From Myxococcota bacterium (lineage in GTDB: Bacteria; Myxococcota_A; UBA796; CAJQPC01), in the NCBI GenBank assembly GCA_036012755.1, contig DASCPX010000070.1, positions 192,001 through 256,000 of the forward strand: a stretch of 64,000 nt of DNA, in the 5' to 3' direction. A program made the translations under genes and the position numbers. The notes under the pieces are model-generated. The model was not told the DNA's origin. It was given only the letters and a program-made list of their open reading frames with translations, and did not search any database. Position 1 is the stretch's first letter; each line of letters begins with the position of its first letter. Shown here piece after piece: positions 877-64,000 of the stretch.

Positions 877-1040
877 CCCCAGTTGGGGGCGGTGATGACC
901 ACGAGCGGACTCTCTGAGCTCGCCAGTTCGGTCTCCGAGGGCCCCTCCGTGTCCGCAGACTCGCCAGGTGTGGGACCAGGCGTGTTCGGCCCAGAAGGGT
1001 CGTTGCACGCGAACAACGCGAGAAGTGACACGGGCAGCAT
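700..1040 (-). pseudogene. Lipoprotein with Ig-like domain, interrupted by TGA at 801-803 and apparently truncated near 700
   Basis: Starts MLPVSLLALFAC, with TACGTT 7 nt upstream. Read-through gives VSVS*SIQGGDSGEAEGVSAWSAADIALAEGDNILTVTG, a typical Ig-like pattern in which the stop falls where Trp is expected. Confidence 0.55.
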
Positions 1041-1129
1041 GGCCGAGAACGTACCATCGTGCCGGGCAGCGCGGGCCGGTGTCTGGCCTGGGCGTTTGCC
1101 GTCACGGTTCGCGGGGACTACACGGCGCC

Positions 1130-1759
1130 GTGAGCCCCCGCCTGCTGACGCGTTTCGACGACCACTTCTACGCCTTCGACAAGCCGGCGGGCATGGCGGT
1201 CCACGCCAACGCAGAGGGCATCGGAGACCTGGTGTCCTGGCTGCGCACCCAGCGCTCGCTGCCGAGGGGGCTGGCCCCAGCGCACCGCCTCGATCGGGGC
1301 ACCTCCGGCGTCGTGCTCTGTGGCTCGAACCGCAAGGCACGGGCGACGATCTGCGACTGGCTCACGAGTGGCCGCAAGACCTACCTGGCCCTCGTCGCCG
1401 GCACGCCAGAGGCCGACGAGGGCTGCCTCGATGCTCCGCTGTTCGACGCGCGGCGGAAGAGGAAGCTGGAAGCGCGGACGCAGTTCCGGGTCTCCCGCCG
1501 CCTCGGGGGATTCAGCTTGCTCGAGGTGGACCTGCTCACCGGTCGAAAGCACCAGCTGCGCCGCCACCTCGCCGACGCCGGGCTCCCCGTGGTCGGTGAC
1601 CAGCGCCACGGTCCGAAGCGCCCGCGCCGCGTGCCGGGCTTCCCCGGTCGTCTGTGGCTTCACTCCTGGCGGATCGAGCTGGGGGCCCGCACGATCACGG
1701 CGCCGCTGCCGGCAGAGCTCCGGGAGCACCTCGACTCGATGGGCCAGGTCCGTCGGTGA
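1130..1759 (+). CDS. RluA-family RNA pseudouridine synthase
   Basis: Motifs DKPAGMAVH, HRLDRGTSG (catalytic Asp), KTYLALV, TGRKHQLRRHL, PVVGD, LWLHS. GTG start chosen at 1130. Confidence 0.92.
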   Translation: MSPRLLTRFDDHFYAFDKPAGMAVHANAEGIGDLVSWLRTQRSLPRGLAPAHRLDRGTSGVVLCGSNRKARATICDWLTSGRKTYLALVAGTPEADEGCLDAPLFDARRKRKLEARTQFRVSRRLGGFSLLEVDLLTGRKHQLRRHLADAGLPVVGDQRHGPKRPRRVPGFPGRLWLHSWRIELGARTITAPLPAELREHLDSMGQVRR

Positions 1760-1775
1760 CGGGCTACGTGCCCCC

Positions 1776-3026
1776 ATGTTCCTGCTGTGGCTGGCCTGCG
1801 AGGAGGCTCCCCCCGAGACCTCGATCCCCACCTGGCTCGCCCCAGAGGTCGTAGACGCCGTCTCGATGGAGCGGGTCAAGGCACACGTCGACGTGCTCGC
1901 GGACGACAGCCTCGGGGGTCGCATCCCCGGCTCATACGGACACTCACTGGCGCAGGACTACCTGCTCGGGGAGCTCCAGGAGATCGGCCTCGAACCCCTG
2001 GGCTCGGACGGCTATCGACAGGACTACGTCAGCGAGCCCGTCGACGGCCGCTTCCAGCTCCTCGAGGACGGCACGGTCGCGGACGCCGAAGACGACCACG
2101 GGACCAACCTCGTCGCCCTGCTGCCCGGCAGCGACCCCGAGCTGGCCGACCAGCACATCGTCGTCATGGCCCACTACGACCACCTGGGCGTGAACAGGGA
2201 CGGCGAGGTCTACAACGGCGCCTTCGACGACGCCACCTCGGTCGCGGTCCTGCTCGAGCTGGCCCGGGTGCTGGTGGAGGAGGAGGTCGAGCTCGGCCGC
2301 TCGATCGTCTTCTTGCTCACTGACGACGAGGAGAGCGGGCTGGAGGGCGCCGAGTGGTTCCTCGCCGACGAGCTCGTCCCACACAGTGAGATCAGCTTCG
2401 CGATCGCCTTGGATCCCATCGGCCGCGGGGTGCTTCCCGACTACTGGCCGCTGGCCCTGATGGGGCTCGAGCGCAGCCCGGACCTGCTGGCCAGCTGGAA
2501 GGAGGTCTGCAGGTACGCGGAGACGACCGTCTCGTTCGTGCACCGGGACACGATCCCCTTGTTCGCCTCTGATCAGGACGAGTTCTACCGGCTCGACGAC
2601 CCCATCCCCGCGGTCTGGTTCACCAGCCCGGGCATGGCCTTCTATCACACGGTCGATGACACCCCGGAGACCATCGACTACCGCTCGGTCCGCCCCCAGG
2701 CCCGCTTCCTGCTTCAGGCCCTCGCCTGGTTCGCTCAGAAGGGCGACGACTACGCCTACGAGGGTCCACCGGAGCTTGCTCCAGAGCACGCGGCGGACGC
2801 TCGAGCGCTCGTGGCCGGCTACCTGGGCTCGGAGCACCTGAGCGACAGCGAGCGCGCCGAGGTCGAGAGCATCCTGCACGATCTCGACGCCATCATCGAG
2901 GCCGACAACCTAGACGTCGTAGACAACCCGGAGGGGCTCTTCGTCTACGCGATGTACTACTTGGTCTTCGAGCTGCCAGGGGAGCACATCGGCGAGATCC
3001 CGCCGCCCTTTCCAGAGGATGGATAG
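1776..3026 (+). CDS. M28-family metallopeptidase, predicted lipoprotein
   Basis: N-terminus MFLLWLAC; motifs AHYDHLG, NGAFDDATS, DEESGL, SDQ, YHTVDDT. Confidence 0.9.
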   Translation: MFLLWLACEEAPPETSIPTWLAPEVVDAVSMERVKAHVDVLADDSLGGRIPGSYGHSLAQDYLLGELQEIGLEPLGSDGYRQDYVSEPVDGRFQLLEDGTVADAEDDHGTNLVALLPGSDPELADQHIVVMAHYDHLGVNRDGEVYNGAFDDATSVAVLLELARVLVEEEVELGRSIVFLLTDDEESGLEGAEWFLADELVPHSEISFAIALDPIGRGVLPDYWPLALMGLERSPDLLASWKEVCRYAETTVSFVHRDTIPLFASDQDEFYRLDDPIPAVWFTSPGMAFYHTVDDTPETIDYRSVRPQARFLLQALAWFAQKGDDYAYEGPPELAPEHAADARALVAGYLGSEHLSDSERAEVESILHDLDAIIEADNLDVVDNPEGLFVYAMYYLVFELPGEHIGEIPPPFPEDG

Positions 3027-3048
3027 CGAGCCTGGTGTCTCGGGAGGG

Positions 3049-3114
3049 ATGAGCTCGTCGGATCCACACGCGCCCCTTCGAGACGACGTGCGCGTGCTCG
3101 GCATGATGCTCGGC
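3049..3114 (+). pseudogene. ppc: N-terminal remnant of phosphoenolpyruvate carboxylase
   Basis: SD-like GGAGGG, then MSSSDPHAPLRDDVRVLGMMLG, matching the LRxDVRxLGxxLG N-terminal motif of PEPC. Similarity ends after about 22 codons. Confidence 0.6.
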
Positions 3115-3187
3115 GCGATCGGAGCACGAATCGGGGACGGGCGTGCCGCTGCCTCCTTGGGCGAACCCCAGCCCCAACGGAGCTACC

Positions 3188-6315: not shown

Positions 6316-6340
6316 GTAGTGGGCTCCGCGCGGCTGGCCG

Positions 6341-8263
6341 TCAGCGGACGTAGACCTCCAGCTCCGCGACCCCCACGTCCTCGTTGCTCGACTCCTGGTT
6401 GCTCATCAACCGGGCCTCCAGGTCCTCGCTGGTCGTCGCCGACAGGGACACCTGGGCCCAGGTCGTGGAGAACAGCGCCGTCGAGTACCAGGTGGAGGTC
6501 CACGTGCTCGCCGTGTTGCCGGTCTCGCAGGAGTAGTCGGTGCCCACGAAGGCCGCGGGGGCCTCGCCGCCGTCGGCGGGGCAGTCGTAGGTGCTGTAGT
6601 AGCCAGGGGTCAGGCCGATGGCCCAGGTGTAGACGTGGCTGCGGCTGCCCGTGCCGTCGTCCACCGTCAGCGACACGCCGTCGACGTAGTCGTCGTCGAT
6701 GCCGTAGCTGCTCCGAGACTGCCCGAAGGCGTCCATGGAGTGGTACTGGTAGGCCTCGACCCGGGCGAGGACCTCGCCGTAGTCCACCTCGAGGCTGTCG
6801 ATCGTGGCGCTCACGGCTCCCTCCGCCGAGACGTCCCGGTAGCAGTAGCTGCCGGTCTGTACCCAGTCGTCAGGGCAGCCGTCCACGCTGAAGTCGTAGT
6901 CTGCGAGCTGGGTCCAGCCGCCGCCGTCGGTGCTCATGTCGCACTCGACCTCGACGGTGGTTCCGTCACCGTCCGGGTCGATGTCGTAGCTCCCGTCGGT
7001 CGCCGAGGAGTTGGCGCTCAGGATCTCGAGGCAGCTGCCGCAGGGCCCGACGCTCTTGTCCCCGTCGTCGCAGTCGTCCCCGCCGCAGCTGGCGTCGGCG
7101 TAGCCGTCCCCGTCACCGTCGTTGTCGATTGATCCGTCACAGTCGTAGTCCTCTCCGTCGCAGCCCGCGGCCGCGCCCGGACTGTATGCCGTGTCCCCGT
7201 CATCACAGTCGTCGCCGCTCGCCACATAGGCGCTCGTCGGCGCCGAGCAGGCCTCGACTGCGGTGCCGGCGCCGTAGCCGTCCCCGTCCATGTCCAGGTA
7301 CCAGTCGGACAAGACGCCGTCGTCGATGTCGCCGTCGCAGTCGTCGTCCTCTCCGTCGCAGACCTCTGTGGCGCCGGGCCAGGTGTCCGCGTCGCTGTCG
7401 TCGCAGTCCGTGTCGTCCTCGACGTAGCCACTGGGAGCATCACAGGCCTCCAGGGCGTAGTCCGCGGCCCCGAAGCCGTCTCCGTCGGCGTCGGCGTACC
7501 AGGTGCTGCGGTCCGTCGCCGAGTCGTCGTCGGTCTGACCATCACAGTCGTCGTCGACGCCGTTGCAGACCTCGTCAGCGTCCGGGTTCACCGCTGAGTC
7601 CGTGTCGTCACAGTCCCCGGTGACGACCGCCCACCCTTCCGGCTGGTCACAAGCCCGGCTGCTCGTGTCGCTCCCGTAGCTGTCGGCGTCGCCGTCTTCG
7701 TACCAGGTCGCGGCGTCGATCGCCGAGTCCTCGTCGGTCTCTCCGTCGCAGTCGTCGTCGATCTCGTTGCAGAGCTCCTCCGCGGCGATGTTGACGGCGG
7801 CGTCGTCGTCGTCGCAGTCGGTGGCGTCAGCGACCGTGCCGTCTCCAGCCTCGCAGGTCTGGCTCGACGAGTCGGGATCCCCGAAGCCGTCGCCGTCGCC
7901 GTCGTCGTACCATGTGCCACCGGCGCTGTCGTCGATCTCTCCGTCGCAGTCGTCGTCTTCGCCGTTGCAGACCTCGACCGCGTCGGGGTTGACGTCCTCG
8001 TCCGTGTCGTCGCAGTCGTCTTCGGCGGGGAAGCCGTCCTCGTCGAGGTCGTCGTCCAGCGTGGCCTCGTCGCAGTCGTCGTCGACGCCGTTGTAGGGCT
8101 CCTCCACGTGCTCTGGGGAGCGCGCCGGGTCCCCGTCGTCGCAGTCTTCTTCCTCGGGGGAGCCGTCACCGTCCGCGTCGACGATGGGCACCTCGCTGTC
8201 CTCGACGAAGCCGGAGTCGTGTGTGTCTTTGTTGCGGCAGGCCAGCAGGATCAGGAAGGTCAT
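6341..8263 (-). CDS. Lipoprotein with DCDD/CNGxDDDCDG putative metal-binding repeats, fibrinogen-like (NEC) module and variable C-terminal domain
   Basis: [13 protein letters not shown]; multiple DCDD...ExCNGxDDDCDG repeats; [32 protein letters not shown] 8263 is preceded by TAGACT. Confidence 0.85.
7063..7114. repeat. 52-nt exact direct repeat, copy 1 (copy 2 at 9911-9962)
   Basis: cgtcgtcgcagtcgtccccgccgcagctggcgtcggcgtagccgtccccgtc is identical in both paralogs and encodes [17 protein letters not shown]. Confidence 0.9.
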
Positions 8264-8344: not shown

Positions 8345-9070
8345 ATGGCCGCGACATCTACGATCGAATGGACCGAAGTCACCTGGAACCCCGTCACCGG
8401 CTGCACGAAGGTCAGCCCCGGCTGCAAGTTCTGCTACGCCGAGGTCATGGCCCGTCGGCTCCTGGCGATGAGAATGAAGCGCTACAGAAACGGCTTCGAC
8501 GTCACGCTGCAGCCCGACATTGTCGAGCTGCCCCTGCGGTGGCGCAAGCCTCGCGTCGTCTTCGTGAACTCGATGTCGGACCTCTTCCACGTCGACGTGC
8601 CAGAGGAGTACATCCTGCGCGTTTTCCAGACCATGGAGCGGGCCTCCTGGCACACCTTCCAGGTCCTCACGAAGCGCTCGGAGCGTCTCGCCGAGCTGGC
8701 ACCGAGGCTGCCCTGGCCCGACAACGTCTGGATGGGTGTGTCGGTCGAGGACCGCAAGCGCGTCTCACGGATCGGGGACCTCGCCAAGGTGCCCGCCGCC
8801 GTGCGCTTCCTCTCGATCGAGCCGATGCTGGAGGCCCTCCCGGAGCTCCCGCTCGAGGGCATTCACTGGGTCATCGTCGGCGGCGAGTCGGGGAGGCGGC
8901 CGCGCCCCATGGAGGCCTCATGGGTCCGCGACACGCAGATCCAGTGCGAGGCCGCCGGGGTCCCGTTCTTCTTCAAGCAGTGGGGCGGTACCAACAAGAA
9001 GAAGGCCGGCCGCCTGTTGGACGGTCGCGTCTGGGACGAGATGCCTACCTCACCCAGAGACGCTGCTTGA
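8345..9070 (+). CDS. DUF5131 / phage Gp37-Gp68 family protein (three-Cys, radical-SAM-like)
   Basis: [73 protein letters not shown]. Confidence 0.92.
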
Positions 9071-10913
9071 ACTCCGCGTTCGCGACGTTCGTGTAGCCGC
9101 AGTAGGTGTAGCAGTAGTTCGGGCCGGGGCTTTGGCCAGTGCGCCCGTAGCCGTTGGAGACCCAGCTCCCGGTGACGCCGAACTTCGTGACCGAGGCGTC
9201 CGAGCTGTTCGTGTAGAGGGCCTGTGAGCTGGTGGTCGAGTACCAGTTCACGTGCAGGCTGAGCTCGGTCGTGTAGTCCGAGCCGCTGGGGTCCGCGGAC
9301 ATGATCAACAGTCCGTCCACCCCCCAGTCGCCGGAGTAGGCCGTCGCGTTGTTCTTGGAGTGGCTGCTGGCAGTGCCGGAGCAGGCATGGAGCGCCGTGT
9401 AGTTGTAGATGTTCGCTGGCTGGTTGTAGTTCGCGAACAGCAGACGCCGGCCCCCGCTGTCGTCTACGAGGCAGTCGAACTCCAAGGCGCCGTCGTCGTG
9501 AATCTGTGTGAAGAAGTCCTCGTCGTCCAAGAGGTAGGTGCCAGAGGTCAAGACCGTGCTGTCGGAGACCTGCACGACCTCGCCGATGAGCTCTGTGGTG
9601 CCGGCGGTGACGGGCATGAGGTTGCAGAAGTTGCCCTGGGTGGTGCTGTCGCCGGACAGATCCGTGTCGCCCCACTCCTCGGCGAGCAGCTTGTCGCGAG
9701 CCACGGACACGGAGCTCCACTCGCTGGAGTCGTAGCTGCTCGTGTCATAGGCGAAGCAGAGGGTCCACCCGCCGCCATCGGTGCTCATGTCGCACCAGGC
9801 GTCGAAGCTGCCGGCGCCGTCGGGATCGATGCTGTAGACCCCGTCGGTGGAGCTCGGCGCAACGGACAGGATCTCGTCGCAGGAGCCGCAGAGGCTGACG
9901 CTGGTGTCGGCGTCGTCGCAGTCGTCCCCGCCGCAGCTGGCGTCGGCGTAGCCGTCCCCGTCCGCGTCGTTGTCGACGCTGCCGTCGCAGTCGTAGTCCT
10001 CGCCGTCGCAGCCCGCCGTGGCGCCAGGGTTGTAGGCGGTGTCGCTGTCGTCGCAGTCGCCGCCGGTCGAGACGTAGTCGGAGCTGGGCCGGTCGCAGTC
10101 GCTCACTTCGTAGTCGTCGTCGCCGTAGCCGTCCCCGTCGTAGTCGAGGTACCAGCTCTTCTCGACGTCCTCGTCGACGTCTCCGTCGCAGTCGTTGTCC
10201 GCTTCGTCGCAGACCTCTTCGGCGCCGGGGTTGCTGCCGTCGTCTCCGTCGTCGCAGTCCGTGCCGTCCTCGACGTAGCCCTCGGGTCGGTCGCAGCTCT
10301 CCACCGTGTAGGCATCGGAGCCGTAGCCGTCGCCGTCGTAGTCGATGTTCCAGGTGCTCGCGTCCTCTGCGTCCTCGTCGACGTCCCCGTCGCAGTCGTC
10401 GTCGATCTCGTTGCAGGTCTCGCTGGCGCCGGGGTTGATCTGTGGGTCGTCGTCGTCACAGTCGCTGTCATCGTCGACGAGCCCGCCGCCGCCGTCGCAG
10501 TCGGTCTCGGTCACTTCAGGGTCGCCGAAGCCATCCCCGTCGCCGTCGACATGCCAGGTGTCACCCACGGCGTTGTCGGCTTCTCCGTCGCAGTCGTCGT
10601 CGAGCCCGTTGCAGATCTCCGTGGCCCCCGGGAAGACATCGTCGTCCTCGTCGTCGCAGTCGAGCGCTGCCTCGTAGCCATCGCCGTCGAGGTCGTCGTC
10701 CGGCGTGCTCTCGTTGCAGTCGTTGTCGAGGCCGTCGTAGGCGATCTCGTCGGCGCCGGGGTTCACGTCCGGGTCGCTGTCGTCGCAGTCGAGGTGCTCC
10801 TCCCAGCCGTCGCCGTCGACGTCGGTGACCGGCGGCGTCGAGTCCACCGGCGAGGTGTCGATGTAGGGGTAGTCTTTTGATCGGCAGGCGAGGGCGGCGA
10901 GGAGCAAGAGCAT
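9045..10913 (-). CDS. Lipoprotein with DCDD repeats, fibrinogen-like (NEC) module and a different C-terminal domain (paralog of 6341..8263)
   Basis: [14 protein letters not shown]; same repeat stalk; [28 protein letters not shown], then unrelated sequence. Confidence 0.85.
9911..9962. repeat. 52-nt exact direct repeat, copy 2
   Basis: Identical to 7063-7114. Confidence 0.9.
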
Positions 10914-17458: not shown

Positions 17459-28846
<11,388 letters not shown>

Positions 28847-51814: not shown

Positions 51815-52369
51815 CCGGGCTCGCTGCAGCCAGGCCTCGGCGCTCTCTCCACGGCGCATCCGCGCCCTCGTCGCTTTTGTCTCCGGGGCCTCGAGCCGGC
51901 CGATGACGACCTCTGCGTCGCTCGGCGAGGTGCCCGTCAACAGCGCCGCATAGAGGCCCTCGTCGATGTGGAAGAGGTGGTCCTGCTCTGGGCGGCTCGC
52001 CTCCCGCAGGGCCGCGGTGAAGCCCTGCACATCAGCGGTCGTCTCGAAGACCACCAGGGTGTTGATGCCCCTGAGATCAGAAGACAACAAGGCCATGAGC
52101 CCCTTGTCGTTGCCCAGGCCGGTCACATCGTCCCTGCGCTCGACGTCGGTCTGGGCACGGGCGAGCAGCACCGCTCCGAGCCGGGAGTGAACGCGCCTCG
52201 CGACGATCCACGACAAGCCGAAGGCGACCGCCGCTGCGATGAGGACGGCCCGCTGACCCGGGCCCGCTCCGAGATCGACACCGCCCAGGCCAGCCGCGAT
52301 CGCGATGCCCGCCAGCGCCGGCAGCACCAGCTGCAGTGCAAGGAACAGCGTCGCGCGGCTCTCAGCCAT
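51791..52369 (-). CDS. Membrane protein with degenerate GGDEF-like domain
   Basis: Two TM helices, DDVTGLGN, and FHIDEGLYAALL in place of RxGGDEF. Confidence 0.6.
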   Translation of the reverse strand: MAESRATLFLALQLVLPALAGIAIAAGLGGVDLGAGPGQRAVLIAAAVAFGLSWIVARRVHSRLGAVLLARAQTDVERRDDVTGLGNDKGLMALLSSDLRGINTLVVFETTADVQGFTAALREASRPEQDHLFHIDEGLYAALLTGTSPSDAEVVIGRLEAPETKATRARMRRGESAEAWLQRARSETPDPG

Positions 52370-53201
52370 CGGGCGGGGGCTCGGTCTGGCCCCAGGTGTT
52401 GTCGCCCCAGCACTCGGCGTGCCCGTCGGTGGTGAGGGCGCAGGTGTGGCCGAGTCCAGCCTCGATGCTGGTGTACTCGCCGGGGATCGTCGTGGACTGC
52501 TTCAGGGCGTCCGAGCCCCAGCAGCGCGCTGTCTCGTCGTTCGCGAGCACGCAGGTGTGCTCGGCTCCGGCGGCCACCGAGAGGAAGACCCCAGAGGAGG
52601 TCGTCGTCTGGCCCTCGTCGTTGTTGCCCCAACAGCTCACGGCGTCGTCCGTGTCGATGGCGCAGCTGTGGCGCCCCCCTGCGGAGACCTCGACCCAGTC
52701 TCCTTCGGGCGCATCGGTCTGGCCGTCGGCGCCCTCTCCCCAGCAGACGAGCTGCTTGTCGGTGTCGATGGCGCAGCTGTGGTTGCTGCCAGCGGAGACC
52801 GCGGTGTAGGAGCCCTCTGGCACCTCGAGCTGACCCTCGAGGTCGCGCCCCCAGCAGGTGATGTCCCTGCCGTCCAGGCCGCATGTGTGCTCGTCCCCCA
52901 GGGCGAGGGCGTCGAAGCGGCTGTCATCGGGGGGCGAGGCCTGGCCGAAGAGATCGTCGCCCCAGCACGCGGGGACGCCGCCCACGACAAGGACGCAGAC
53001 GTGTCGCAGGCCGCTGGCCACGAGCGCGAAGCGGCCCTCTGCGGGCGCGTTCGTGACCTGCCGCTCGTCCTCTTCCCTGCCGTCGTCCTCGATGCCCCAG
53101 CAGGTGATGCTGCTGTCTTCGCGGAGGACACAGCTGTGGTAGCCGCCGACGGAGACCTGCTGCACGTCGCCGCCGCAGGCCAGGAGGAACAACCAGCTCA
53201 C
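52362..53201 (-). CDS. RCC1/BLIP-II-like repeat lipoprotein
   Basis: MSWLFLLAC; seven repeats of VSAGxxHxCAL...CWG. Confidence 0.88.
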   Translation of the reverse strand: MSWLFLLACGGDVQQVSVGGYHSCVLREDSSITCWGIEDDGREEDERQVTNAPAEGRFALVASGLRHVCVLVVGGVPACWGDDLFGQASPPDDSRFDALALGDEHTCGLDGRDITCWGRDLEGQLEVPEGSYTAVSAGSNHSCAIDTDKQLVCWGEGADGQTDAPEGDWVEVSAGGRHSCAIDTDDAVSCWGNNDEGQTTTSSGVFLSVAAGAEHTCVLANDETARCWGSDALKQSTTIPGEYTSIEAGLGHTCALTTDGHAECWGDNTWGQTEPPPDG

Positions 53202-53256: not shown

Positions 53257-54831
53257 GTGTCAAGGCCGAGTCGTCGAGACCTGCTGCGTGGACTGGGCGC
53301 GACCGCTGCGCTCGTCTTCGCGAGGCCCGCCTTCGCCGAGGACAGCGCCTGGCAGGTGAGCTACTGCGCCTGCTCCGACCTCGACGAGGCCCTCGACCAG
53401 CTCGCCGAGGTCGAGGCGGTGCTCGGCGAGGACGTCGCTCGCCGCATGGGCGTAGTGCTCACATCCGAGCGCGCCTACCACGTCGTGCTTCCGGTGGAGG
53501 GGGGCGAGGCCAAGGCCGCGGCCATCGTGGAGCAGCACGACCAGGTGCTCAAGGAGGCCTGGGGTGCCGACGAGGCCCAGGCGACGCTGCTGCAGGTCCG
53601 AGTCGAGACCGAGCTCTACAACGTCAGCTACGGCCTCGGCCCGAACTTCGACGCGCTGAAGCGGGACTACGACCGCGTGGCGCGAATGCTCGGCACGGGG
53701 GTGGCGCGGGACCTCGTCATCGAGCGGACCCAGAAGGGCAACTACGCCCTGGTCTACAGGCGCTACGGCGACCTCACCTCGACCCGCCGGGTGGCCTCGA
53801 AGCACGACTCGCTGTTGCGCAGCGTGGGCGTGGACGCCTCGGTCATTCGCCACAAGAACAACGCCATCGTCTGGAGCGGCTCGTCCGCTGTCGTGCCGCG
53901 GGTCTCGGTGGTCGTCCCCGACCCCGCAGAGGACCCAACGCTGGAGACGCCCGCGCTGGAGGTGCCCGCTCTCGAGGTGCCCGCTCTCGAGGTGCCTGCT
54001 CTCGAGGTCCCGGAGTCCCTCGTCGAGCTCATCGCGATGGCCGCTCCGGACTCGGCCCTCGCTGCTTCCATCGAGGGCCACGTCAAGGCCATGCGCGGTA
54101 GCGGCATCGTGGCCAGCGACGAGCACACCAGCTGGCTGGTCTACGACCTGCAGGAAGACAGGCCGCTGGCGTCGATCAACGTCGAGGTCCCGCGGCAGTG
54201 CGCATCGATGATCAAGCCGTTGGTGGCGCTCGCCTACTTCCACCGCGTGGCGGCAGAGGAGCTGAGCTACGGCGACGACGAGAAGCTGAAGTTCGAGCGC
54301 ATGATCCAGAAGTCCTCGAACAGCTCGACGGACTGGGCGATCGGAGAGGTTGGCGGCCCCGGAGCGGTCGACCGGCTGCTGGAGGAGCACTACAGCCACC
54401 TCTTCCCGCAGACAGAGGTCGTCGAGTACATCGGCAGCTCTGGTCGCACCTACCTGAACCTGGCCTCCGCCGGGGACCTCGGGCGCTTCCTCCGGGCGTT
54501 GTGGAGGGACGAGCTGCCGATGTCCAAGGAGCTCAAGCGGCTCATGAACCTACCCGGCCGCGACCGCCTCTTCGACGGCGCCCCGGCGATCCCGGTGGGC
54601 ACCGCCGTCTACAACAAGACCGGCAGCACGGCCAGGCTCTGCGGCGACATGGGCATCCTCGTCGCCCACAAGCCCGACGGATCGAGCTGGGCCTACGCCA
54701 TCGTCGGCATCATCGAAAAGGACTCCCGCACCTCGAGCTACACGAGCTGGATCCGCAACCGCAGCAAGGTCATCCGCTCGGTCTCGAACCTGGTCTATGT
54801 CGAGCTGAAGGACCTGGAGGGGCTGCTCTGA
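53257..54831 (+). CDS. Tat-exported class-A beta-lactamase-like serine hydrolase with N-terminal accessory domains
   Basis: SRRDLL twin-Arg signal; ASMIK, SSN, NKTGS; PALEV-repeat linker. Confidence 0.85.
   Translation: MSRPSRRDLLRGLGATAALVFARPAFAEDSAWQVSYCACSDLDEALDQLAEVEAVLGEDVARRMGVVLTSERAYHVVLPVEGGEAKAAAIVEQHDQVLKEAWGADEAQATLLQVRVETELYNVSYGLGPNFDALKRDYDRVARMLGTGVARDLVIERTQKGNYALVYRRYGDLTSTRRVASKHDSLLRSVGVDASVIRHKNNAIVWSGSSAVVPRVSVVVPDPAEDPTLETPALEVPALEVPALEVPALEVPESLVELIAMAAPDSALAASIEGHVKAMRGSGIVASDEHTSWLVYDLQEDRPLASINVEVPRQCASMIKPLVALAYFHRVAAEELSYGDDEKLKFERMIQKSSNSSTDWAIGEVGGPGAVDRLLEEHYSHLFPQTEVVEYIGSSGRTYLNLASAGDLGRFLRALWRDELPMSKELKRLMNLPGRDRLFDGAPAIPVGTAVYNKTGSTARLCGDMGILVAHKPDGSSWAYAIVGIIEKDSRTSSYTSWIRNRSKVIRSVSNLVYVELKDLEGLL
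53950..54009 (+). repeat. 15-nt coding tandem repeat x4 (PALEV)
   Basis: Units of cccgctctcgaggtg and variants. Confidence 0.9.
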
Positions 54832-54969: not shown

Positions 54970-55602
54970 GTGGCGACCGCGGCCGTGCCCCTGACCCTGA
55001 AGACCCTGCCGTCCGCGGACGACGATGACGGTGACGGCTTCGGCGCGCTCGACTGTGACGACACCGACGCCAGCGTCTTCCCGGGCGCCGACGAGGCGCC
55101 GGACTGGCTCGACAACGACTGTGACGGCGACGACGACTGCGACGGGTTGGTCGATGACGCCTGTGTCGGCGAGGTCTCGACCTCGATCGTCGGTGATCTC
55201 CGGCTCTCCCAGACCACCATCGAGAGCGGCCAGAGCCTGACCTTGTCGGTCTGGCTCGACGGGCCTGGGCAGCTGTTGTTCACCCTGCCGGAGGGCGAGA
55301 CCATGGAGTCCGACTACGCCACGTGGACCGCACCGGCCGTGGAGGAGCCCACCAGCTTCGTCGTTGCGGTCGAGGTCTACCAGGACGGGGAGCGCACGGA
55401 CTTCCGGACGGGCGAGCTCGGTGTCTGGCCTCCGGACACCCTCGCCGTGGCCGAGCCCGAGCTGGTCGAGGTCCCCTCCGGTTGCTCGACGAGCCGTGGA
55501 CCAGCTGGCACGGTCCTTGTCATCGCCGGATTGCTGCTCGTCGTTAGAAACCGGCGATGCTCTTCGCACTGCTCGCCTGCAACGGCCCCCAGACCTTCCT
55601 GA
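54970..55602 (+). CDS. Probably 5'-truncated surface protein: DCDD repeat, Ig/PKD-like domain, MYXO-CTERM-like tail
   Basis: DGDGFGALDCDD..DNDCDG; C-terminal SGCSTS-hydrophobic helix-RNRR; no signal peptide or SD. Confidence 0.6.
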   Translation: MATAAVPLTLKTLPSADDDDGDGFGALDCDDTDASVFPGADEAPDWLDNDCDGDDDCDGLVDDACVGEVSTSIVGDLRLSQTTIESGQSLTLSVWLDGPGQLLFTLPEGETMESDYATWTAPAVEEPTSFVVAVEVYQDGERTDFRTGELGVWPPDTLAVAEPELVEVPSGCSTSRGPAGTVLVIAGLLLVVRNRRCSSHCSPATAPRPS

Positions 55603-56588
55603 CCTACAACGCCGGCCTCGCGGTCGGCTTCGTGCCCGGCGCCGAGGATCGGGCTGCCAAGACGGCGGCCGCGGTCAACGGCGTCGAGGCCGACCTCGTC
55701 TGCCTGCAGGAGGTCTGGCGCTCCGACCACGCCGAGCTCTTCACGGGGGGCTGGGCCTCGACCTACGTGCCGGATGCCCAGCAGGACCTCGGCGATGGCG
55801 CCGCCTGCACAGAGGACGATCTGTCCAGCCTCGTCGAGTGCCTGGACGAGAACTGCTTGGACGTCTGCACCGACGAGCTCGTCGACTGTGTCTTCGACAA
55901 CTGCGCCTTCCCCTTCCTCGGGCTCGAGACCGGCTGCCAGAGCTGCGTGATGGCGAACGTCGGCGGCGACATCGACGCGGTCACCGAGACCTGCCTCGTC
56001 GAGTCGACCACCTACGCCTACGACGGCAGCTTCGGCACGGCGCTGCTGTCCCCCCATCCGCTGGTCGGCGCAGAGGAGCACGTCTTCTCCAGCACCACGA
56101 ACCGGCGCTCGGCGCTGCACGCCGTGATGGAGGGGCCCGCCGGAGACGTGGACGTCTACTGCACGCACCTCACGGCGGTCTTCGATCTCATCCCGTACAC
56201 CGGCGACGCCGGCTCATGGGACGAGGAGCAGGAGGCGCAGGTCGCGGAGCTCCGGGACTGGGTCGACCAGACCGCCACCAACCCGGTCGTGATGCTCGGC
56301 GACTTCAACAACGGGCCGACGGACAACGTCAACAACTACAACGACCTGTCCAAGGGCTTCGACAACGCCTACCTCGAGGCCGGGCTGGACTGCACCTACT
56401 GCTCCGACAACCCGCTGAACTCGGAAGACAGCGAGGATCGCGTCATCGACCACGTGCTCACCCGGGATCTCGGCGGGGAGTTCGTCGCCGAGCGGACGCT
56501 CGACGCCCCGGTCGAGATCGAGTCCTGCGGGACCTCGTCAGAGGGCGCCTACTCGGACCACTACGGCGTCAGGGTCACCAATCAGTAG
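55557..56588 (+). CDS. Endonuclease/exonuclease/phosphatase-family lipoprotein with Cys-rich insertion
   Basis: MLFALLAC; TYNAGL, DLVCLQEV, CTHL, GDFN, IDHV, SDHYGV. Confidence 0.88.
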   Translation: MLFALLACNGPQTFLTYNAGLAVGFVPGAEDRAAKTAAAVNGVEADLVCLQEVWRSDHAELFTGGWASTYVPDAQQDLGDGAACTEDDLSSLVECLDENCLDVCTDELVDCVFDNCAFPFLGLETGCQSCVMANVGGDIDAVTETCLVESTTYAYDGSFGTALLSPHPLVGAEEHVFSSTTNRRSALHAVMEGPAGDVDVYCTHLTAVFDLIPYTGDAGSWDEEQEAQVAELRDWVDQTATNPVVMLGDFNNGPTDNVNNYNDLSKGFDNAYLEAGLDCTYCSDNPLNSEDSEDRVIDHVLTRDLGGEFVAERTLDAPVEIESCGTSSEGAYSDHYGVRVTNQ

Positions 56589-57193: not shown

Positions 57194-57760
57194 ATGCTCC
57201 GGCTGTCATTCCTTGCCTGCGCCGCGAAGCAGGACATCGGACTCTCTGACGGCGAGGTCGTCGAGCAGTTCAAGGGACTCCACGCCCCGGTCTACGAGGT
57301 CTATGACCTCGCCGGCGATCGACAGGCCATCCACGAGCTGCTGAGCGACAGCTTCACCGGCGAGGCCCTGACCAGGGAGTACGTCGAGCACTGGACGACC
57401 CTGGCCCACATGGAGCGCGAGCAGACCTCGATCCGCGTGAAGAAGGTGGACTACGAGACGGTCGAGGTCCTCGAGCGCGCCCCGGGCGAGGTCCGGGTGG
57501 ACGTGGACTGGTCCGTCGGCGGCATCGTGACCCACCAGGCCCACAAGCACCCCCGGGTGAATCGCTACCGCGCCGTCTACACGTTGCGAGAGACCCCGGA
57601 CGGCCTGCGCATCACCGCCACGCGCATGCGCAACCTCGAGCGCATCAAGAACGTGCTCTCGACCACCGACGACGAGGGCTTCCTGCTCGACGAGCTCCCC
57701 AGCGGCGGGGGCGGCTTCATGGATCCCCTGGACCTGCTCGAGCTCATGGAGGGGGAGTGA
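57194..57760 (+). CDS. Hypothetical lipoprotein, first gene of the ABC operon
   Basis: MLRLSFLAC; GIVTHQAHKHPRVNRY; stop overlaps the GTG of the next gene. Confidence 0.72.
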   Translation: MLRLSFLACAAKQDIGLSDGEVVEQFKGLHAPVYEVYDLAGDRQAIHELLSDSFTGEALTREYVEHWTTLAHMEREQTSIRVKKVDYETVEVLERAPGEVRVDVDWSVGGIVTHQAHKHPRVNRYRAVYTLRETPDGLRITATRMRNLERIKNVLSTTDDEGFLLDELPSGGGGFMDPLDLLELMEGE

Positions 57761-58425: not shown

Positions 58426-59576
58426 TCCGCCACGCCCTCTTCCTGGCCTTGCGGTACCTGGCCTCGGCGCCGGGTCGCACGGTGGTCCTCGTGCTCGGGA
58501 CGAGCGTCGCGCTGTTTCTGCCCCTGTTCACGTGGCAGGCCTCGCAGCTCATCGAGGACACCCTGATGGCCAGGGCGGAGTCGTCGCCGGTGCTGGTGGG
58601 CGAGAAGGGCAACGAGTTCGATCTCACGATGACGGGCCTCTACTTCCGGGGCCAGGTCAAGGAGACCATCCCCAGCGCCAGCGTCGAGCGGGGCGCCGAG
58701 GCCGGGATCGCCGTGCCGCTCTATGTCAGCCACAGCATCGGCGGTTCCCCGCTGGTGGGCACATCGCTGGACTACTTCAGCGCTCGGGACCTGGAGCTCT
58801 GGGATGGCCGCAAGCCGGCCCTGTTGGGCGAGATCGTGGCCGGGTGGGAGACCGCCGCCGCCTTCAACATCCAGGTCGGCGACAGCGTGCGCTCGGACCT
58901 CACGAACCTCTACAACATCGCCGGCGCCTACCCGATCCTGCTCGAGGTCGTCGGCATCCTGGAGCCGACCGGGACCCCCGACGACCACGCCTTCTTCGCC
59001 GATCTCAAGACGACCTGGGTGCTGGACGGGCACCTCCACGGCCACGAGGAGGTCACCCTCGACAACTCCCTGAACCGGGACGCCGGCACCGGAGAGAACC
59101 TCGAGGCCACGGCGGCCATCTTCATGATCACGGAGGTCACGCCAAGGAACCGCGCCTCCTTCCACTTCCACGGCGACACGGGCCACCTGCCGATCTCGAG
59201 CGTGCTGGTCTTCCCCGATGACCAGCAGGCCCACGACCTGCTCCTGGGTGACTACGCCCTCGACGAGCAGCTCCAGGCCGTCCGTCCGGTCACCGTCGTG
59301 CGCACCATCCTCGGCATCGTCCTGCGGGTGCGCGAGGGAGCCACCGTCTACTTCGCCGCGGTCGCCGTCTCGACGCTGGCCTTCTTCGCGCTGGTGCTGG
59401 TGCTGTCGTTGCGGCTGCGGCGCGCCGAGCTGAGGCTCATGGAGCGCATCGGCTGCAGCCGCGGGACCGTCGCTTCGATGGTCGCTGCGGAGGTGTTGCT
59501 GGTCGTGGGCGCGGCTGCTTTGGTGGCGATACTGAGCACCTTCGGAAGCCTCACCTTGCTGGAGAGTGTCCTGTGA
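58422..59576 (+). CDS. FtsX/MacB-like ABC permease
   Basis: N-terminal TM helix, large periplasmic domain (VGT, GEIVAG, VVGILEPTGTPDD), C-terminal TMs with LRRAELRLMERIG; His motifs GHLHGH and FHFHGD. Confidence 0.85.
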   Translation: MIRHALFLALRYLASAPGRTVVLVLGTSVALFLPLFTWQASQLIEDTLMARAESSPVLVGEKGNEFDLTMTGLYFRGQVKETIPSASVERGAEAGIAVPLYVSHSIGGSPLVGTSLDYFSARDLELWDGRKPALLGEIVAGWETAAAFNIQVGDSVRSDLTNLYNIAGAYPILLEVVGILEPTGTPDDHAFFADLKTTWVLDGHLHGHEEVTLDNSLNRDAGTGENLEATAAIFMITEVTPRNRASFHFHGDTGHLPISSVLVFPDDQQAHDLLLGDYALDEQLQAVRPVTVVRTILGIVLRVREGATVYFAAVAVSTLAFFALVLVLSLRLRRAELRLMERIGCSRGTVASMVAAEVLLVVGAAALVAILSTFGSLTLLESVL

Positions 59577-60397
59577 TCGCCTTGTTGCTCGCATGCTCCG
59601 GCGACCCCGAGATCACGACCGCTCCGGAGCCCGCCGGGCCGCTGACCGTGAGCACGACCGACTGGCCGGCCCACTACCTCGTCGAGCGCATCGGTGGACA
59701 GCACGTGAGCGCGACCTGCATCCTGCCGGCCGGAGAGGACCCGCCCGCCTGGCAGCCTCCTGGCGAGGTCGTCGCCGCCCTCGCGGACGCCGACCTCATC
59801 GTCACCAACGGCGCTGGCTTCTCTGCCTGGATGGCGACCGCGAGCCTGCCCTCGGCCAAGGTGGTGGAGACCGCCACCGCCGTGGAGCTCATCGAGTTCG
59901 CCGGGGCGACCCACAGCCACGGGGTCGAGGGCGACCACAGCCACGCCGGCATCGACCCCCACACGTGGTCGGACCCCCAGAGCTATGGCCTCCAGGCCGG
60001 CACTGTGCGGGACGCCCTCACCGGCGTCGATCCCGCCCACGCAGAGGCCTACGCCGCCAACACCGCTGCGCTGCTCGCCGAGCTGGAGGTCCTGGACCAG
60101 TCCCTCGCGGTGGCCACTGCGGACCTGGTCGAGCTGGAGATGGCGGCGAACCATCCGGCCTTCAACTACCTGGCCAGGCGCTACGACCTGTCGATCCAGA
60201 GCTTCGACGTCGAAGGCGAGGCGCTGGGAGCCTGGGCCGAGGGGCGCGAGGACCCTGTGATGCTCTGGGAGACCACACCGGGTCTCGAGATCGTGGGTCT
60301 TCGCGACGTGGAGCTCGACCCGCTGGAGTCCGGCGAGCCCTACGACTACCTCGCGCAGGCCAGGGCCAACGTCGTGGTATTGGACGGCATCCTGTGA
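59573..60397 (+). CDS. ZnuA/TroA-family metal-binding lipoprotein
   Basis: MIALLLAC; ADLIVTNGAG; His-rich loop HSHGVEGDHSH; DPHTW; HPAFNYLARRY. Confidence 0.88.
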   Translation: MIALLLACSGDPEITTAPEPAGPLTVSTTDWPAHYLVERIGGQHVSATCILPAGEDPPAWQPPGEVVAALADADLIVTNGAGFSAWMATASLPSAKVVETATAVELIEFAGATHSHGVEGDHSHAGIDPHTWSDPQSYGLQAGTVRDALTGVDPAHAEAYAANTAALLAELEVLDQSLAVATADLVELEMAANHPAFNYLARRYDLSIQSFDVEGEALGAWAEGREDPVMLWETTPGLEIVGLRDVELDPLESGEPYDYLAQARANVVVLDGIL

Positions 60398-60750
60398 GCT
60401 TCGTCCTCATCAGCCTGGCCCTCGGCGCCGACCTGGAACGCCCGGTCCTGGGCCAGTACGCGCCGCAGCCCCGAGCGCTCTGGCTCCACGGGCCGGACGG
60501 ACCCGGGATCCCCGACGAAGGCTACGAGTACGACGAGCCCGGCAACGGCCTCGGCTGGATCGCGCTCGGGCTCGCCGCTGGGGCCGGAGGGACCGCCATC
60601 GCCATGCGTCAGTCCCGCCTCGCGATGGAGGACGCCACCTGCCGCTACGACCTCGATCAGGCCTACACGAAGAACAAGCGGCGGGGCTACTCCACCTACG
60701 GACTCCTTGGAGGCGCCGCGGTCTTCCTGGGCCTGGCGATAGCGTTCTGA
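60394..60750 (+). CDS. Hypothetical membrane protein
   Basis: GTGA overlap; MSFVLISLALG-AD; two hydrophobic segments. Confidence 0.65.
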   Translation: MSFVLISLALGADLERPVLGQYAPQPRALWLHGPDGPGIPDEGYEYDEPGNGLGWIALGLAAGAGGTAIAMRQSRLAMEDATCRYDLDQAYTKNKRRGYSTYGLLGGAAVFLGLAIAF

Positions 60751-60863
60751 TGGCCCTGTTGCTGCTCATCTTCGCCTGCATCCAGCACGACCTCTACGAG
60801 GATCGCGTCGACGAGGTCGACACATGCGACACCGGCGGCGAGCTCGTCGAAGAGGCCGACTGA
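60750..60863 (+). CDS. 37-aa acidic mini-lipoprotein (not in the ORF track)
   Basis: TGATG coupling; MALLLLIFACIQHDLYEDRVDEVDTCDTGGELVEEAD. Confidence 0.6.
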   Translation: MALLLLIFACIQHDLYEDRVDEVDTCDTGGELVEEAD

Positions 60864-62012: not shown

Positions 62013-62052
62013 GGCGCCAGGGTAGTCACGGCTGGCTCGGGGGCGAACCCGC

Positions 62053-62631
62053 TCAGGGCTTGTCGACGGTGACCGAGAACTCGCGCATGGCCTCGTCCCG
62101 GGTCCAGCGACCCTCCTGCGCGAGGTCGAGGTCCTTGGCCTCTCCGAGCAGGACCTCGGCGGTCGAGGCGGTCACGGTCCAGGGCTCGACCGCGCTCGCG
62201 CCGCCGCTGTAGACCATCTTCTCCTCGGCGTAGCCGGAGTTCTGGATGACGACCGTGTAGCCGCCCGCGGGGAGATCGCTGCTCGGGATGTCGAAGCCGA
62301 CGAGGTAGAGGAAGAAGCCCTCCGCGGCCTTGCCGTTCATCTCGTGGCTGATCGGCCGCCAGGTCACGTCTTGGACCTCGCCGTCGATGCTCACGCTCAG
62401 GGTCGAGGCCATGGTGTCCCAGGTGGCCTCGTTGTACTTCTTGACCTTGAGCTTCTTGATCGGCCCCGAGTCGTCCTCTGAGACGCCGATGCCTCCGAGC
62501 ACCACGGGGATCGGGACCTCGAGCACGACGAGGCCGACCAGGACTGTCTCGGACGCCTTCACCTGGGTCCGGAGGCTGTACTCGTCGGTGTTGAAGGGGT
62601 GGGCCAGAGCGCTCGCGACGAGGAGGATCAT
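62053..62631 (-). CDS. Secreted hypothetical protein (mature N-terminus HP)
   Basis: MILLVASALA-HPF; coupled to the upstream gene by ATGA overlap. Confidence 0.7.
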   Translation of the reverse strand: MILLVASALAHPFNTDEYSLRTQVKASETVLVGLVVLEVPIPVVLGGIGVSEDDSGPIKKLKVKKYNEATWDTMASTLSVSIDGEVQDVTWRPISHEMNGKAAEGFFLYLVGFDIPSSDLPAGGYTVVIQNSGYAEEKMVYSGGASAVEPWTVTASTAEVLLGEAKDLDLAQEGRWTRDEAMREFSVTVDKP

Positions 62632-63188
62632 GCTGGTCGCGTCAGGCTGAAGTAGGCACCCTCGGGCTTTCCGCTGCGGTAGGCCGCAGAGATGATGAGG
62701 TCCCGGCTCACTCGCCGGACCACGTCCTTCATGTTGCCGTAGACGAAGCGGTAGGGGAGCTCCAGGTTCGACGCCACCGGCGGCCAGTCACCCGGGGCCT
62801 CGTCGGGCTCCCAGGTGTAGTCGAAGACGAGCTGCTCGCCGTGCTGGTCCCCGTCCACGCGGACCAGGAAGTGACCGGGTCCGCCGAACCACGCGGCGAG
62901 GCCGCTGTTCACGTTGTAGCCCTGGACGCGGGCCCTGTGATCGGCGAAGGCCTTCGCGAAGTCGTTGAAGGCAGGCAGGCTGTTCCGACCCGCCCAGGTC
63001 TGGGCCTCGCCCTCCGGTGAGAGGAAGAAGTTGGGCTCCACGTCGCGCCCCTCGGACTTCCCGTAGAGGACCTCCATGTCCTTCTTCTTCAGCGAGCGCA
63101 TCCACTCCAGCCGCTCGCTCGACGTGGCCGCATCCAGCGCGGCCTCGATGGCCTCGATCTCGGCGGCGTCGGGTCGGGGGATGGGCAT
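62628..63188 (-). CDS. Hypothetical protein
   Basis: SD GGAGG before MPIPRP; GRNSLPAF, GPGHF, VYGNMKDVVRRV. Confidence 0.7.
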   Translation of the reverse strand: MPIPRPDAAEIEAIEAALDAATSSERLEWMRSLKKKDMEVLYGKSEGRDVEPNFFLSPEGEAQTWAGRNSLPAFNDFAKAFADHRARVQGYNVNSGLAAWFGGPGHFLVRVDGDQHGEQLVFDYTWEPDEAPGDWPPVASNLELPYRFVYGNMKDVVRRVSRDLIISAAYRSGKPEGAYFSLTRPA

Positions 63189-63233
63189 CGGGCCTCCAGT
63201 GTCGCTGGCTATCCTGTCCATGGGAGGCCCTCC

Positions 63234-64000
63234 ATGTGGCTGTTGTTCATTGCCTGTAGCGGAAAGACCCCCGAGGCCGGAGGACCATCCGACGACTCCT
63301 CGACGGACTCGCAGCAGCTCGACGACACGGCGCCGGTGGTCGGTGGCGAGGACTTCGCGCTCTTCACCGGCGGCGCGGAGCTCGAGGTCTGGTTCAACGA
63401 TGACTACGATCTGCCCGAAGACAGCGACGAGGGCTGGTCGCTCGGCGAGATCGGCGACTGGACGGCGCTTGCGGACTTCGACGGCGACGGCCTCGACGAC
63501 TTCTGGCAGATCGAGGACACGGCGGCCAAGGTGCGCATCTACATGAACCAGGGCGGGAGCTACGAGACCGAGCCCAGCTTCGAGCCCACCTCCGGTGTCG
63601 GCCAGAAGCGTCCGGCCATCGCCGGAGACTTCGACGGCGACGGTCGCGCCGACATGATGCTGCTCAACACGACCTCTGGCCGGGCCCTGACCTTCCTCAA
63701 CGTCACGGGCGGCTTCGACACCGACAACAAGATCTCCACCGCCACCAGCCTCGGCGCCTCAGGCGCCTTCGCCGCAGCCGACATGGACGGCGACGGGACT
63801 GACGACCTCGTCCAGCTCGCCGGCAGCGACGTCAGCGTCTGGAGGGTCCAAGACGGCGTCATCGACGAGAGCGCCGCGATGCACGAGCTGAACCTCCCGG
63901 GCACGATCCAGGCCCTCGGCATCGACCTCGACGACGACGGCATCTCCGAGCTCGCCACCTGGTCCGGCTCGACCCTGTATGTGCACGGCAACGACGGGAG
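63234..64000 (+). CDS. FG-GAP/VCBS-repeat lipoprotein, runs off the window end
   Basis: SD GGAGG; MWLLFIAC; ADFDGDGLDD, GDFDGDGRAD, ADMDGDGTDD. Confidence 0.85.
   Translation, partial: MWLLFIACSGKTPEAGGPSDDSSTDSQQLDDTAPVVGGEDFALFTGGAELEVWFNDDYDLPEDSDEGWSLGEIGDWTALADFDGDGLDDFWQIEDTAAKVRIYMNQGGSYETEPSFEPTSGVGQKRPAIAGDFDGDGRADMMLLNTTSGRALTFLNVTGGFDTDNKISTATSLGASGAFAAADMDGDGTDDLVQLAGSDVSVWRVQDGVIDESAAMHELNLPGTIQALGIDLDDDGISELATWSGSTLYVHGNDG

Follow-up and report, generated by a model that had tools for sequence, protein, structure and literature searches.

Short lipobox N-termini in the window

The window analysed here is a 64,000-nucleotide stretch of contig DASCPX010000070.1 from a Myxococcota genome (G000:C70:192001-256000, where G000 is the genome under study), an assembly of 6.73 Mb in 250 contigs with 68% G+C and 96% completeness. 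It carries 21 open reading frames (ORFs) that begin with Met and a short hydrophobic run, and an earlier note on this DNA had read these N-termini as ultra-short lipoprotein signal peptides served by a separate, non-canonical export route. All 21 peptides are encoded at the positions and on the strands listed below (16 with ATG and 5 with GTG as start codon), they terminate in [LMFI][AGS]C with the Cys at residue 7-12, and K/R precedes the Cys only in MLRLSFLAC, as the note had said. The closest named relatives of one window protein are proteins from metagenome-assembled genomes (MAGs) of Myxococcota, at 42-48% identity.

Genes with a short lipobox N-terminus (coordinates, strand, description):
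1776..3026, +, M28 peptidase, MFLLWLAC (Cys 8); coding onset no more than 2 codons from the start
6341..8263, -, MopE-repeat protein, MTFLILLAC (Cys 9); TAGACT at -12; best match in genome G015 starts MRLMTLVSLSIVFTAC
9045..10913, -, MopE-repeat protein (Cys 10); in-frame stop 4 codons upstream
11913..13385, -, protein without Pfam family, MLIALLAC (Cys 8); start pinned
13410..14543, -, beta-lactamase-family protein, MNTLAAMLAC (Cys 10); GTG start, pinned
32064..32945, +, protein without Pfam family, MLLVLLAC (Cys 8); GGAGG Shine-Dalgarno sequence upstream
32950..35004, -, MopE-repeat protein, MIALLALLGC (Cys 10); alternative ATG 4 codons upstream, giving MEVPMIALLALLGC
35114..36337, -, protein without Pfam family, MVTILLAIIGC (Cys 11); alternative GTG 13 codons upstream
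36445..37263, +, GDPD phosphodiesterase, MLPLLLAC (Cys 8); start pinned; orthologues use the same Cys in canonical signals
37301..39079, +, FG-GAP protein, MLLFALSC (Cys 8); start pinned
43679..44761, +, beta-lactamase-family protein, MFLIGLAC (Cys 8)
44788..46737, +, MopE/FG-GAP protein, MSLLCLLAC (Cys 9); GTG start; no start codon upstream
47924..49702, +, FG-GAP/MopE protein, MITWLAC (Cys 7, or 8 from a GTG one codon upstream); GTG start
52362..53201, -, RCC1-repeat protein, MSWLFLLAC (Cys 9); GTG start, pinned; TAGACT at -13
55557..56588, +, endonuclease/exonuclease/phosphatase (EEP) protein, MLFALLAC (Cys 8); start pinned; orthologue signals bear K/R
57194..57760, +, protein without Pfam family, MLRLSFLAC (Cys 9); the only K/R-bearing peptide of the 21
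59573..60397, +, ZnuA-like binding protein, MIALLLAC (Cys 8); GTG start; 107 open codons upstream without a start codon
63234..64000, +, extending past the window end, FG-GAP protein, MWLLFIAC (Cys 8); coding onset exactly at the start
801..1040, -, doubtful ORF of 79 residues, N-terminus MLPVSLLALFAC; no Pfam family; not called by the gene finder
31776..31982, -, doubtful ORF of 68 residues, N-terminus MFLFVMAC; no Pfam family; not called by the gene finder
60750..60863, +, doubtful ORF of 37 residues, N-terminus MALLLLIFAC; the next gene encodes a PilZ protein

The note had also held the starts to be real and the cargo to be of an extracytoplasmic type, and both claims stood up. For 11 of the 21 genes (10913-, 13385-, 14543-, 36445+, 37301+, 44788+, 53201-, 55557+, 59573+, 60750+ and 63234+) there is no in-frame ATG, GTG or TTG between the start and the upstream stop, which in seven of them lies only 3-8 codons away. 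A nearby alternative start exists in four genes, those at 47924, 57194 (GTG 1 codon and TTG 8 codons upstream), 35004 and 36337. The remaining six have start candidates only 40 or more codons upstream, where the codon-usage model detects no coding signal, and their coding potential sets in at or near the claimed start. Pfam families were assigned to 14 of the 21 proteins (M28, MopE repeats, beta-lactamase family, GDPD, FG-GAP, RCC1, EEP and ZnuA), most of them of extracytoplasmic types.

A motif scan of the window, which did not pick up the starts at 14543 and 57194, returned 27 matches, or about 20 distinct starts after nested ones were merged. The reversed sequence gave 2 matches, and 20 first-order Markov simulations averaged 2.0, with at most 5 in any of them. 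Three of the 21 are doubtful as genes, namely the short ORFs of 79, 68 and 37 residues that lack a Pfam match. The 68-residue ORF on the minus strand (31776-31982) diverges from the gene at 32064-32945 (+), their lipobox-type starts being 82 bp apart, and it may be a remnant or a small lipoprotein.

Two signal classes across the genome

Genes were called genome-wide with a simple in-house finder based on codon usage (5797 ORFs), and the census took every ORF with a lipobox Cys near the coding onset, without a charge filter (946 ORFs). Tabulated in this way, the Cys positions are dominated by the short class, with a mode at residue 8. In 436 of the 946 ORFs the Cys cannot lie beyond residue 12 with any ATG, GTG or TTG, in 97 the signal is certainly long (Cys at 15 or later), and in 25 the Cys is at 13-14; the other 388 are ambiguous, and the start nearest the coding onset would make 295 of them short, 74 long, 17 of 13-14 and 2 far. 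Among the 436 certain-short ORFs, 144 have an in-frame stop no more than 14 codons from the Cys, so that not even an unusual start codon could add an n-region there. Single-linkage clustering (BLASTP E < 1e-10, coverage of at least 40%) divides the 436 proteins into 323 clusters, which rules out the expansion of a few families as the cause of the trait.

Initiation signals were examined in the 327 short-signal genes that have a single possible start (ATG 204, GTG 113, TTG 10), in which the modal Cys is residue 8 and the residues before it include K/R in 6 genes and D/E in none. A Shine-Dalgarno core stands at the right distance in 45% of these genes, compared with 14% of internal control codons and 48% of long-signal lipoproteins. 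The sequence TANNNT occurs at -14 to -11 in 22% of them, 0.4% of the control codons and 4% of the long-signal lipoproteins. An in-frame stop lies exactly 4 codons upstream in 60 of the 327, 47 of these stops being TAG, and doubles as the TA of the TANNNT box; window examples with a stop 12 nt upstream are 10913-, 36445+, 37301+, 53201- and 55557+. Leaderless genes have been described as marked by a TANNNT box some 12 bp ahead of the start codon (PMC3160421), which suggests that the genes of this subset may be transcribed without leaders. The trait itself does not require leaderless transcription, the 45% of genes noted above having a Shine-Dalgarno core instead. Over the whole genome the motif begins at 986 of the 10,243 start codons located close to a coding onset (9.6%) and at 168 of the 82,012 internal start-like codons (0.2%), a 47-fold difference, and the median distance of the motif start from the onset of coding potential is 1 codon. 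Short uncharged lipobox N-termini are thus confirmed as a genome-wide feature.

Signal lengths are bimodal and form two classes rather than a continuum. Among the 448 genes with one plausible start, K/R is found in 4 of 387 signals with the Cys at 6-11, in 9 of 18 with the Cys at 12-15 and in 39 of 43 with the Cys at 16 or later. The short signals carry L, I or F as their second residue, L at -3/-2 and L in 45-80% of the core positions, and A/G/S at 100% of -1 positions, the -1 set being itself a selection rule. Their cores are more hydrophobic than those of the long class (Kyte-Doolittle 3.03 vs 2.45; Leu 57% vs 36%), and the Cys is followed by acidic, proline-rich, linker-like sequence. Of the 97 long signals, 11 are twin-arginine-like, 69 bear K/R among their first eight residues and 17 show neither feature. 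A foreign origin of the long-signal genes was also considered and gave no clear signal (G+C at third codon positions 0.897 vs 0.909; codon score 0.475 vs 0.500, p 0.16).

Canonical lipoprotein signals, of the type found in E. coli Lpp and processed through Sec and signal peptidase II (SPase II), consist of an n-region, an h-region and a lipobox (PMC8048626). The short signals resemble them in the lipobox (L at -3/-2, A/G/S at -1, invariant Cys at +1), in the hydrophobic core, in the extracytoplasmic type of cargo, in that Lgt, LspA and Lnt are encoded in the genome and in the use of the same Cys by orthologues, but differ in having no basic n-region and a Cys mostly at residue 7-10, with a mode of 8. 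Rules of the PROSITE type (PS51257) place the Cys at 15-35 and ask for K/R within the first 7 residues, and the short signals depart from them in both the position of the Cys and the lack of a positive n-region. Signals of the twin-arginine translocation (Tat) pathway coexist with the short ones in the same genome (11 of the 97 long lipoprotein signals, and the window gene at 53257), but they keep a long n-region bearing RR; short signals lack Arg, RR motifs are found in the long class only, and the shortening is confined to Sec-type signals. Studies of E. coli alkaline phosphatase from the Kendall laboratory are said to have found that extra core hydrophobicity offsets an absent N-terminal charge in engineered signals. 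The likeness lies in an uncharged N-terminus tolerated next to a very hydrophobic core, the short class being richer in Leu than the long one, whereas those constructs were made on one protein with a core of near-normal length and the signals described here are natural, much shorter and carried by hundreds of unrelated proteins. For region labels, the SignalP 6.0 preprint gives minimum lengths of 2 for the n-region and 3 for the c-region.

Short uncharged signals do not appear to be specific to lipoproteins. Among 1487 non-lipobox genes with pinned starts, the N-terminus is signal-like in 382; K/R is absent ahead of the core in 216 of these, and 115 have a core that directly follows Met, as in MWLILSLASA/EAPY (a slash marks a signal peptidase I (SPase I)-type cleavage site, placed by eye). 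TonB-receptor and OmpA-like proteins are mixed, some with canonical signals (MKNSFSRCLLGLSLLWSSTALA) and others with short uncharged ones (MIWMLAGLAQA/QDD, MLQLLIGLAQA/QST). The homologue of BamD (YfiO) at G000:C149:39926-40537 (-) starts with MFALLLTLSLPAVAA/KNQ and has neither a lipobox Cys nor K/R. For LptE (PF04390) and MlaA (PF04333), looked for as further conserved lipoproteins, the Pfam models gave no match in this genome, at the 96% completeness of the assembly. Further uncharged SPase I-like starts are found in the window at 28910, 46731 and 62631; two of these genes, and the Tat-type contrast, are:
28910..30808, +, outside the 21, mechanosensitive-channel-type protein, uncharged SPase I-like start MIQLLLMSVLVLCPALA/QEPP
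62053..62631, -, outside the 21, protein with a 10-residue SPase I-like start, MILLVASALA/HPFN
53257..54831, +, contrast, beta-lactamase2-domain protein with the canonical twin-arginine signal MSRPSRRDLLRGLGATAALVFARPAFA

With short signals apparently present on non-lipoproteins, the question shifts from Lgt and LspA to the Sec step that both kinds of protein share.

Orthologues, distribution and export machinery

Orthologues of two window proteins allow the short signals to be compared with those of relatives. In GDPD orthologues (36445) from across the order, the lipobox Cys is aligned ahead of a conserved WHHPR, and the genome under study has MLPLLLAC where relatives have MRLVRRLLLSIAAGLSTLFTAC, MFSRHSLVRCHSWLALAATAC, MKLHDLFLLPALLVGC and MPLRRRFLAPLLGLFLPAC; a few other relatives are short too. 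The GDPD signal MRVLDKALPMLTLLAGC of one relative has a Met at the beginning of its core, so that a single change of start could take it from 17 to 8 residues. For the EEP protein (55557), MLFALLAC stands against MIRSLPLLLLVAC, MTPRFLSIVALFSLAAC and MRHTLPLLSLALAAC in orthologues.

The sister of the G000 clade on the SecY tree, genome G015, was sampled over 396 kb (343 genes), which yielded 32 lipobox ORFs, 14 of them short, 13 long and 5 with the Cys at 13-14. Its 21 pairs with the genome under study (about 17 interpretable), which are one-way best matches tallied by eye, include about 6-7 that are long in G015 and short in G000, 2 long in both and about 7 short in both, and one pair may run the opposite way, short in G015 and long in G000. 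As a side observation, a ZnuA-like protein 41% identical to that of the window, with the short signal MLFSLLFAC, is encoded on a 6.8-kb contig (L040; JBLHMA010000313.1) in a gammaproteobacterial MAG (Cognaticolwellia sp.), where it may be mis-binned.

The spread of the trait was surveyed in 61 genomes of the order and 131 genomes outside the order, of the same class and phylum, which as kin are not independent. As an index we used the DNA pattern ATG-(NYN)3-(NTN)2-GCN-TGY, that is, Met, five uncharged residues, Ala and Cys. This Cys-8 pattern occurs 46-109 times per genome in 9 of the 61 genomes of the order, mostly 0-30 times in the other genomes of the order and 0-9 times in all 131 genomes outside it, and the reversed-pattern control gives 0-2 matches in genomes of the order. 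The nine counts are:
G031, 109
G039, 108
G000, 95
G051, 73
G026, 64
G001, 60
G044, 60
G032, 52
G014, 46

Replacing ATG by CTG in the pattern, as in a signal that continues upstream, gives 26 matches in the genome under study as against 95 with ATG, and the ratio is reversed in low-trait genomes (50 vs 14 in G027, 58 vs 13 in G024), so that the index is more than a count of lipoproteins. It is also too narrow, its counts gauging the extreme form only, since G008 has a single Cys-8 match and nevertheless 9 short signals among the 22 lipobox ORFs of a 180-kb sample, mostly with the Cys at 9-10; the samples for G008, G026 and G032 are small. A Cys-10 pattern is found 24 times in G029, 23 in G001, 20 in G000 and 18 in G015, and 0-6 times outside the order. 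High-trait genomes fall into at least three clades of the SecY tree that have low sisters. In its weaker form the trait thus occurs widely across the order, and its extreme form has a patchy distribution and was found in some genera of the order only.

The export and lipidation machinery, in which the earlier note had expected adaptation, comprises one match each for SecY, SecA and Ffh, one Lnt above the cut-off, and paralogues of Lgt and LspA. Two tandem LspA and five Lgt genes scored above the cut-offs, four of the seven forming an lspA-lspA-lgt-lgt cluster at G000:C59:100000-102591 and three further Lgt genes lying elsewhere. A second LspA copy is found in 9 of the 11 genomes that reach 5 pattern matches per Mb and in 15 of the 50 that do not. 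The correlation with trait density is rho 0.18 (p 0.16) for the LspA count and rho 0.03 for the Lgt copy number over the 61 genomes of the order, and the same tandem cluster occurs in the low-trait genomes G005, G010 and G017. The GNxxDR and FNxAD motifs are conserved in both LspA copies of the genome under study, which can be aligned with solved LspA structures. Compared with the S. aureus enzyme, all 23 aligned LspA sequences of the order (including L001 and L119-L138), from high- and low-trait genomes alike, have about 13 additional residues inserted between the catalytic Asp motifs, and no feature in these 23 sequences separates the two groups. The hypothesis that Lgt or LspA paralogues underlie the trait is not supported by these correlations or by an LspA alignment in which no change is trait-specific. 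The multiplicity of Lgt, with 2-6 copies in all 61 genomes, is unusual in itself.

Sequence comparison of the machinery covered SecY and LspA only. In SecY from 41 genomes, the best discriminating columns are Gly to Ala changes at positions 238 and 370 of the G000 protein (G000:C80:13592-14611), in the conserved ER[G/A]QRR loop and the TT[G/A]GAIY segment, carried by 8 of the 10 high-trait genomes and by 3 of the 25 low-trait ones; they were picked as the best out of some 450 columns, with no correction for phylogeny or for multiple testing. The changes occur in two separate clades, the G000/G039/G051 clade and the whole f7 clade, but not in the sister genome G015; they follow the trait only in part and are a weak lead.

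Probable minimal signals and competing explanations

We consider it probable, at roughly two chances in three, that the short N-termini are genuine minimal Sec-type signals consisting of the hydrophobic core alone and handled by the ordinary Sec, Lgt and LspA machinery. From the earlier note this retains the minimal signals, the missing n-region, the real starts and the extracytoplasmic type of cargo; it does not retain the separate, lipoprotein-specific route with adapted machinery. Such a signal would be made up of Met, 4-8 very hydrophobic, Leu-rich residues and then a lipobox L-A/G/S-C or an A-x-A site, and would replace a canonical signal on orthologues while exposing the same mature N-terminal Cys. 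Export would most likely proceed by the single SecYEG, SecA and signal recognition particle (SRP) system, followed by lipidation by Lgt and cleavage by LspA as usual. The added hydrophobicity may compensate for the absent positive charge, and the acidic first 30 mature residues, together with the alpha-amino end, could provide the charge asymmetry that orients the hairpin.

The lipoprotein Cys and the catalytic residues of LspA have been placed at the interface of membrane and periplasm (PMC8048626). After translocation, a peptide of 7-10 residues that is unable to span the bilayer would remain as a hydrophobic stub in the outer leaflet, the site of action of Lgt and LspA. This geometry would work only with an uncharged N-terminus, as a charged one could not be held at the cytoplasmic face, and it would explain why K/R is rare below 12 residues and why intermediate lengths are few. 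The short form probably has a one-step origin, in which initiation passes to a start codon within the hydrophobic core.

Several points weigh against this interpretation. Export and lipidation of the short-signal proteins are read from sequence, and a core of 5-7 residues equals or falls short of the minimum known for model Sec systems. The outer-leaflet stub and the orientation of the hairpin are steps that we infer. The acidic mature N-terminus is equally present in the long class (net charge of residues +2 to +31 of -5.1 for short, -4.9 for long and -1.3 for background windows), so that it does not amount to a compensation peculiar to the short class. Because the short set used for composition was picked with a no-charge filter, its zero K/R is circular, the unbiased figure being 6 of 327, and only the hydrophobicity and downstream figures are informative. 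Start calls rest on a simple gene finder and rules rather than a trained predictor, and the 388 ambiguous lipobox ORFs among the 946 were settled by coding onset alone. Finally, the reading does not account for the contrast between genera with a strong trait and sister genera in which it is weak.

Among the alternatives, it is unlikely that the signals depend on an adapted translocon or targeting system, with a relaxed SecY of the prl kind or altered SecA, SRP or membrane lipids, in which case they would fail in ordinary bacteria. The confinement of the extreme form to some genera of one order, the SecY changes in two separate clades and the frequent second LspA of genomes with at least 5 matches per Mb all speak for it. 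On the other hand, the SecY changes are missing in the high-trait genomes G001 and G019 and present in the low-trait G050, they were selected from about 450 uncorrected columns, SecY, SecA and Ffh are without paralogues, and canonical signals still work in the same cell, 97 of them certainly long.

The route proposed by the earlier note, specific to lipoproteins and equipped with specialised Lgt and LspA paralogues, appears improbable. Two discrete signal classes do coexist in the genome, and two tandem LspA and five Lgt genes, four of the seven in one cluster, could have served such a route. However, TonB-receptor and OmpA-like proteins and the BamD homologue appear to carry short uncharged signals as well, and proteins of the SPase I type do not come into contact with Lgt or LspA at any point. 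The genome, with its single SecY, SecA and Ffh, encodes canonical lipoprotein signals with K/R or twin arginines alongside the short ones; Lgt is present in 2-6 copies throughout the order without correlation with the trait, the tandem cluster is shared with low-trait genomes, and the insertion and catalytic motifs of the 23 LspA sequences are common to high- and low-trait genomes.

It is likewise improbable that the N-termini, although real, are uncleaved hydrophobic anchors, or that a share of the proteins is cytoplasmic with an incidental Cys motif. Such a reading could appeal to the fact that export and lipidation are deduced from sequence, to the 3 doubtful genes among the 21 and to the length of the segment, as we know of no functional signal this short. 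Against it stand the alignment of the Cys with the lipobox Cys of canonical orthologue signals, the strict A/G/S at -1 with L at -3/-2, the 47-fold enrichment of the motif at coding onsets, the periplasmic or surface type of the ZnuA-like, M28, FG-GAP and MopE cargo and the acidic, proline-rich linker after the Cys. Mis-assigned starts, with upstream initiation from rare start codons or hidden by assembly errors adding a normal n-region, have next to no chance of being the explanation, since the upstream in-frame candidates in 6 of the 21 window genes and 388 of the 946 census ORFs are outweighed by the stops within 14 codons of the Cys in 144 genes (whatever the start codon), the 327 genes with a single possible start, the Shine-Dalgarno or -10 signals at the right spacing and the recurrence of the pattern in independently assembled genomes.

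The interpretation as minimal Sec-type signals may extend, at somewhat less than even odds in our estimate, to a general picture of two discrete natural forms of Sec signal, the textbook membrane-spanning hairpin with a positive n-region and a 'half-membrane' form of 6-10 uncharged residues, too short for the bilayer and in no need of a positive anchor, both served within one cell by unmodified Sec, Lgt, LspA and LepB and linked by one-step capture of a start codon in the hydrophobic core. Genome annotation, secretome prediction and models of recognition by SecA, SRP, SecY, Lgt and LspA are built on the accepted rules for signals (a basic n-region, a length of about 15-30 residues and, in lipoproteins, a Cys no earlier than residue 15). 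If this general picture holds, the n-region and a bilayer-spanning length would be dispensable in vivo for about one sixth of the proteome, and current predictors would miss most of the envelope proteome in these lineages. The roughly 700-800 of about 5800 genes with uncharged signals of 7-10 residues, about half as long as textbook ones, would show that a small part of the usual signal is enough in vivo, and these hundreds of natural minimal signals, ordinary in orthologues elsewhere, would serve for testing recognition models. Much of the envelope and surface proteome of these uncultured Myxococcota would then probably be mis-annotated as cytoplasmic or carry wrong starts. We found no description of such signals in open-access papers and bioRxiv, subscription journals being outside the search.

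Two further genes of the window may be mentioned. On the minus strand, 40085-40909 encodes a CsgG-like protein (Pfam E 8e-8) that starts with MLALLGLAGATTLA and has no Cys, although members of the CsgG family are usually lipoproteins. Among the lipoprotein genes, a single ORF of 3795 residues (17459-28846, +) encodes a polyketide or lipopeptide megasynthase, in which the first 1000 residues hold, in this order, AMP-binding (FAAL-like), PP-binding and ketoacyl synthase domains.

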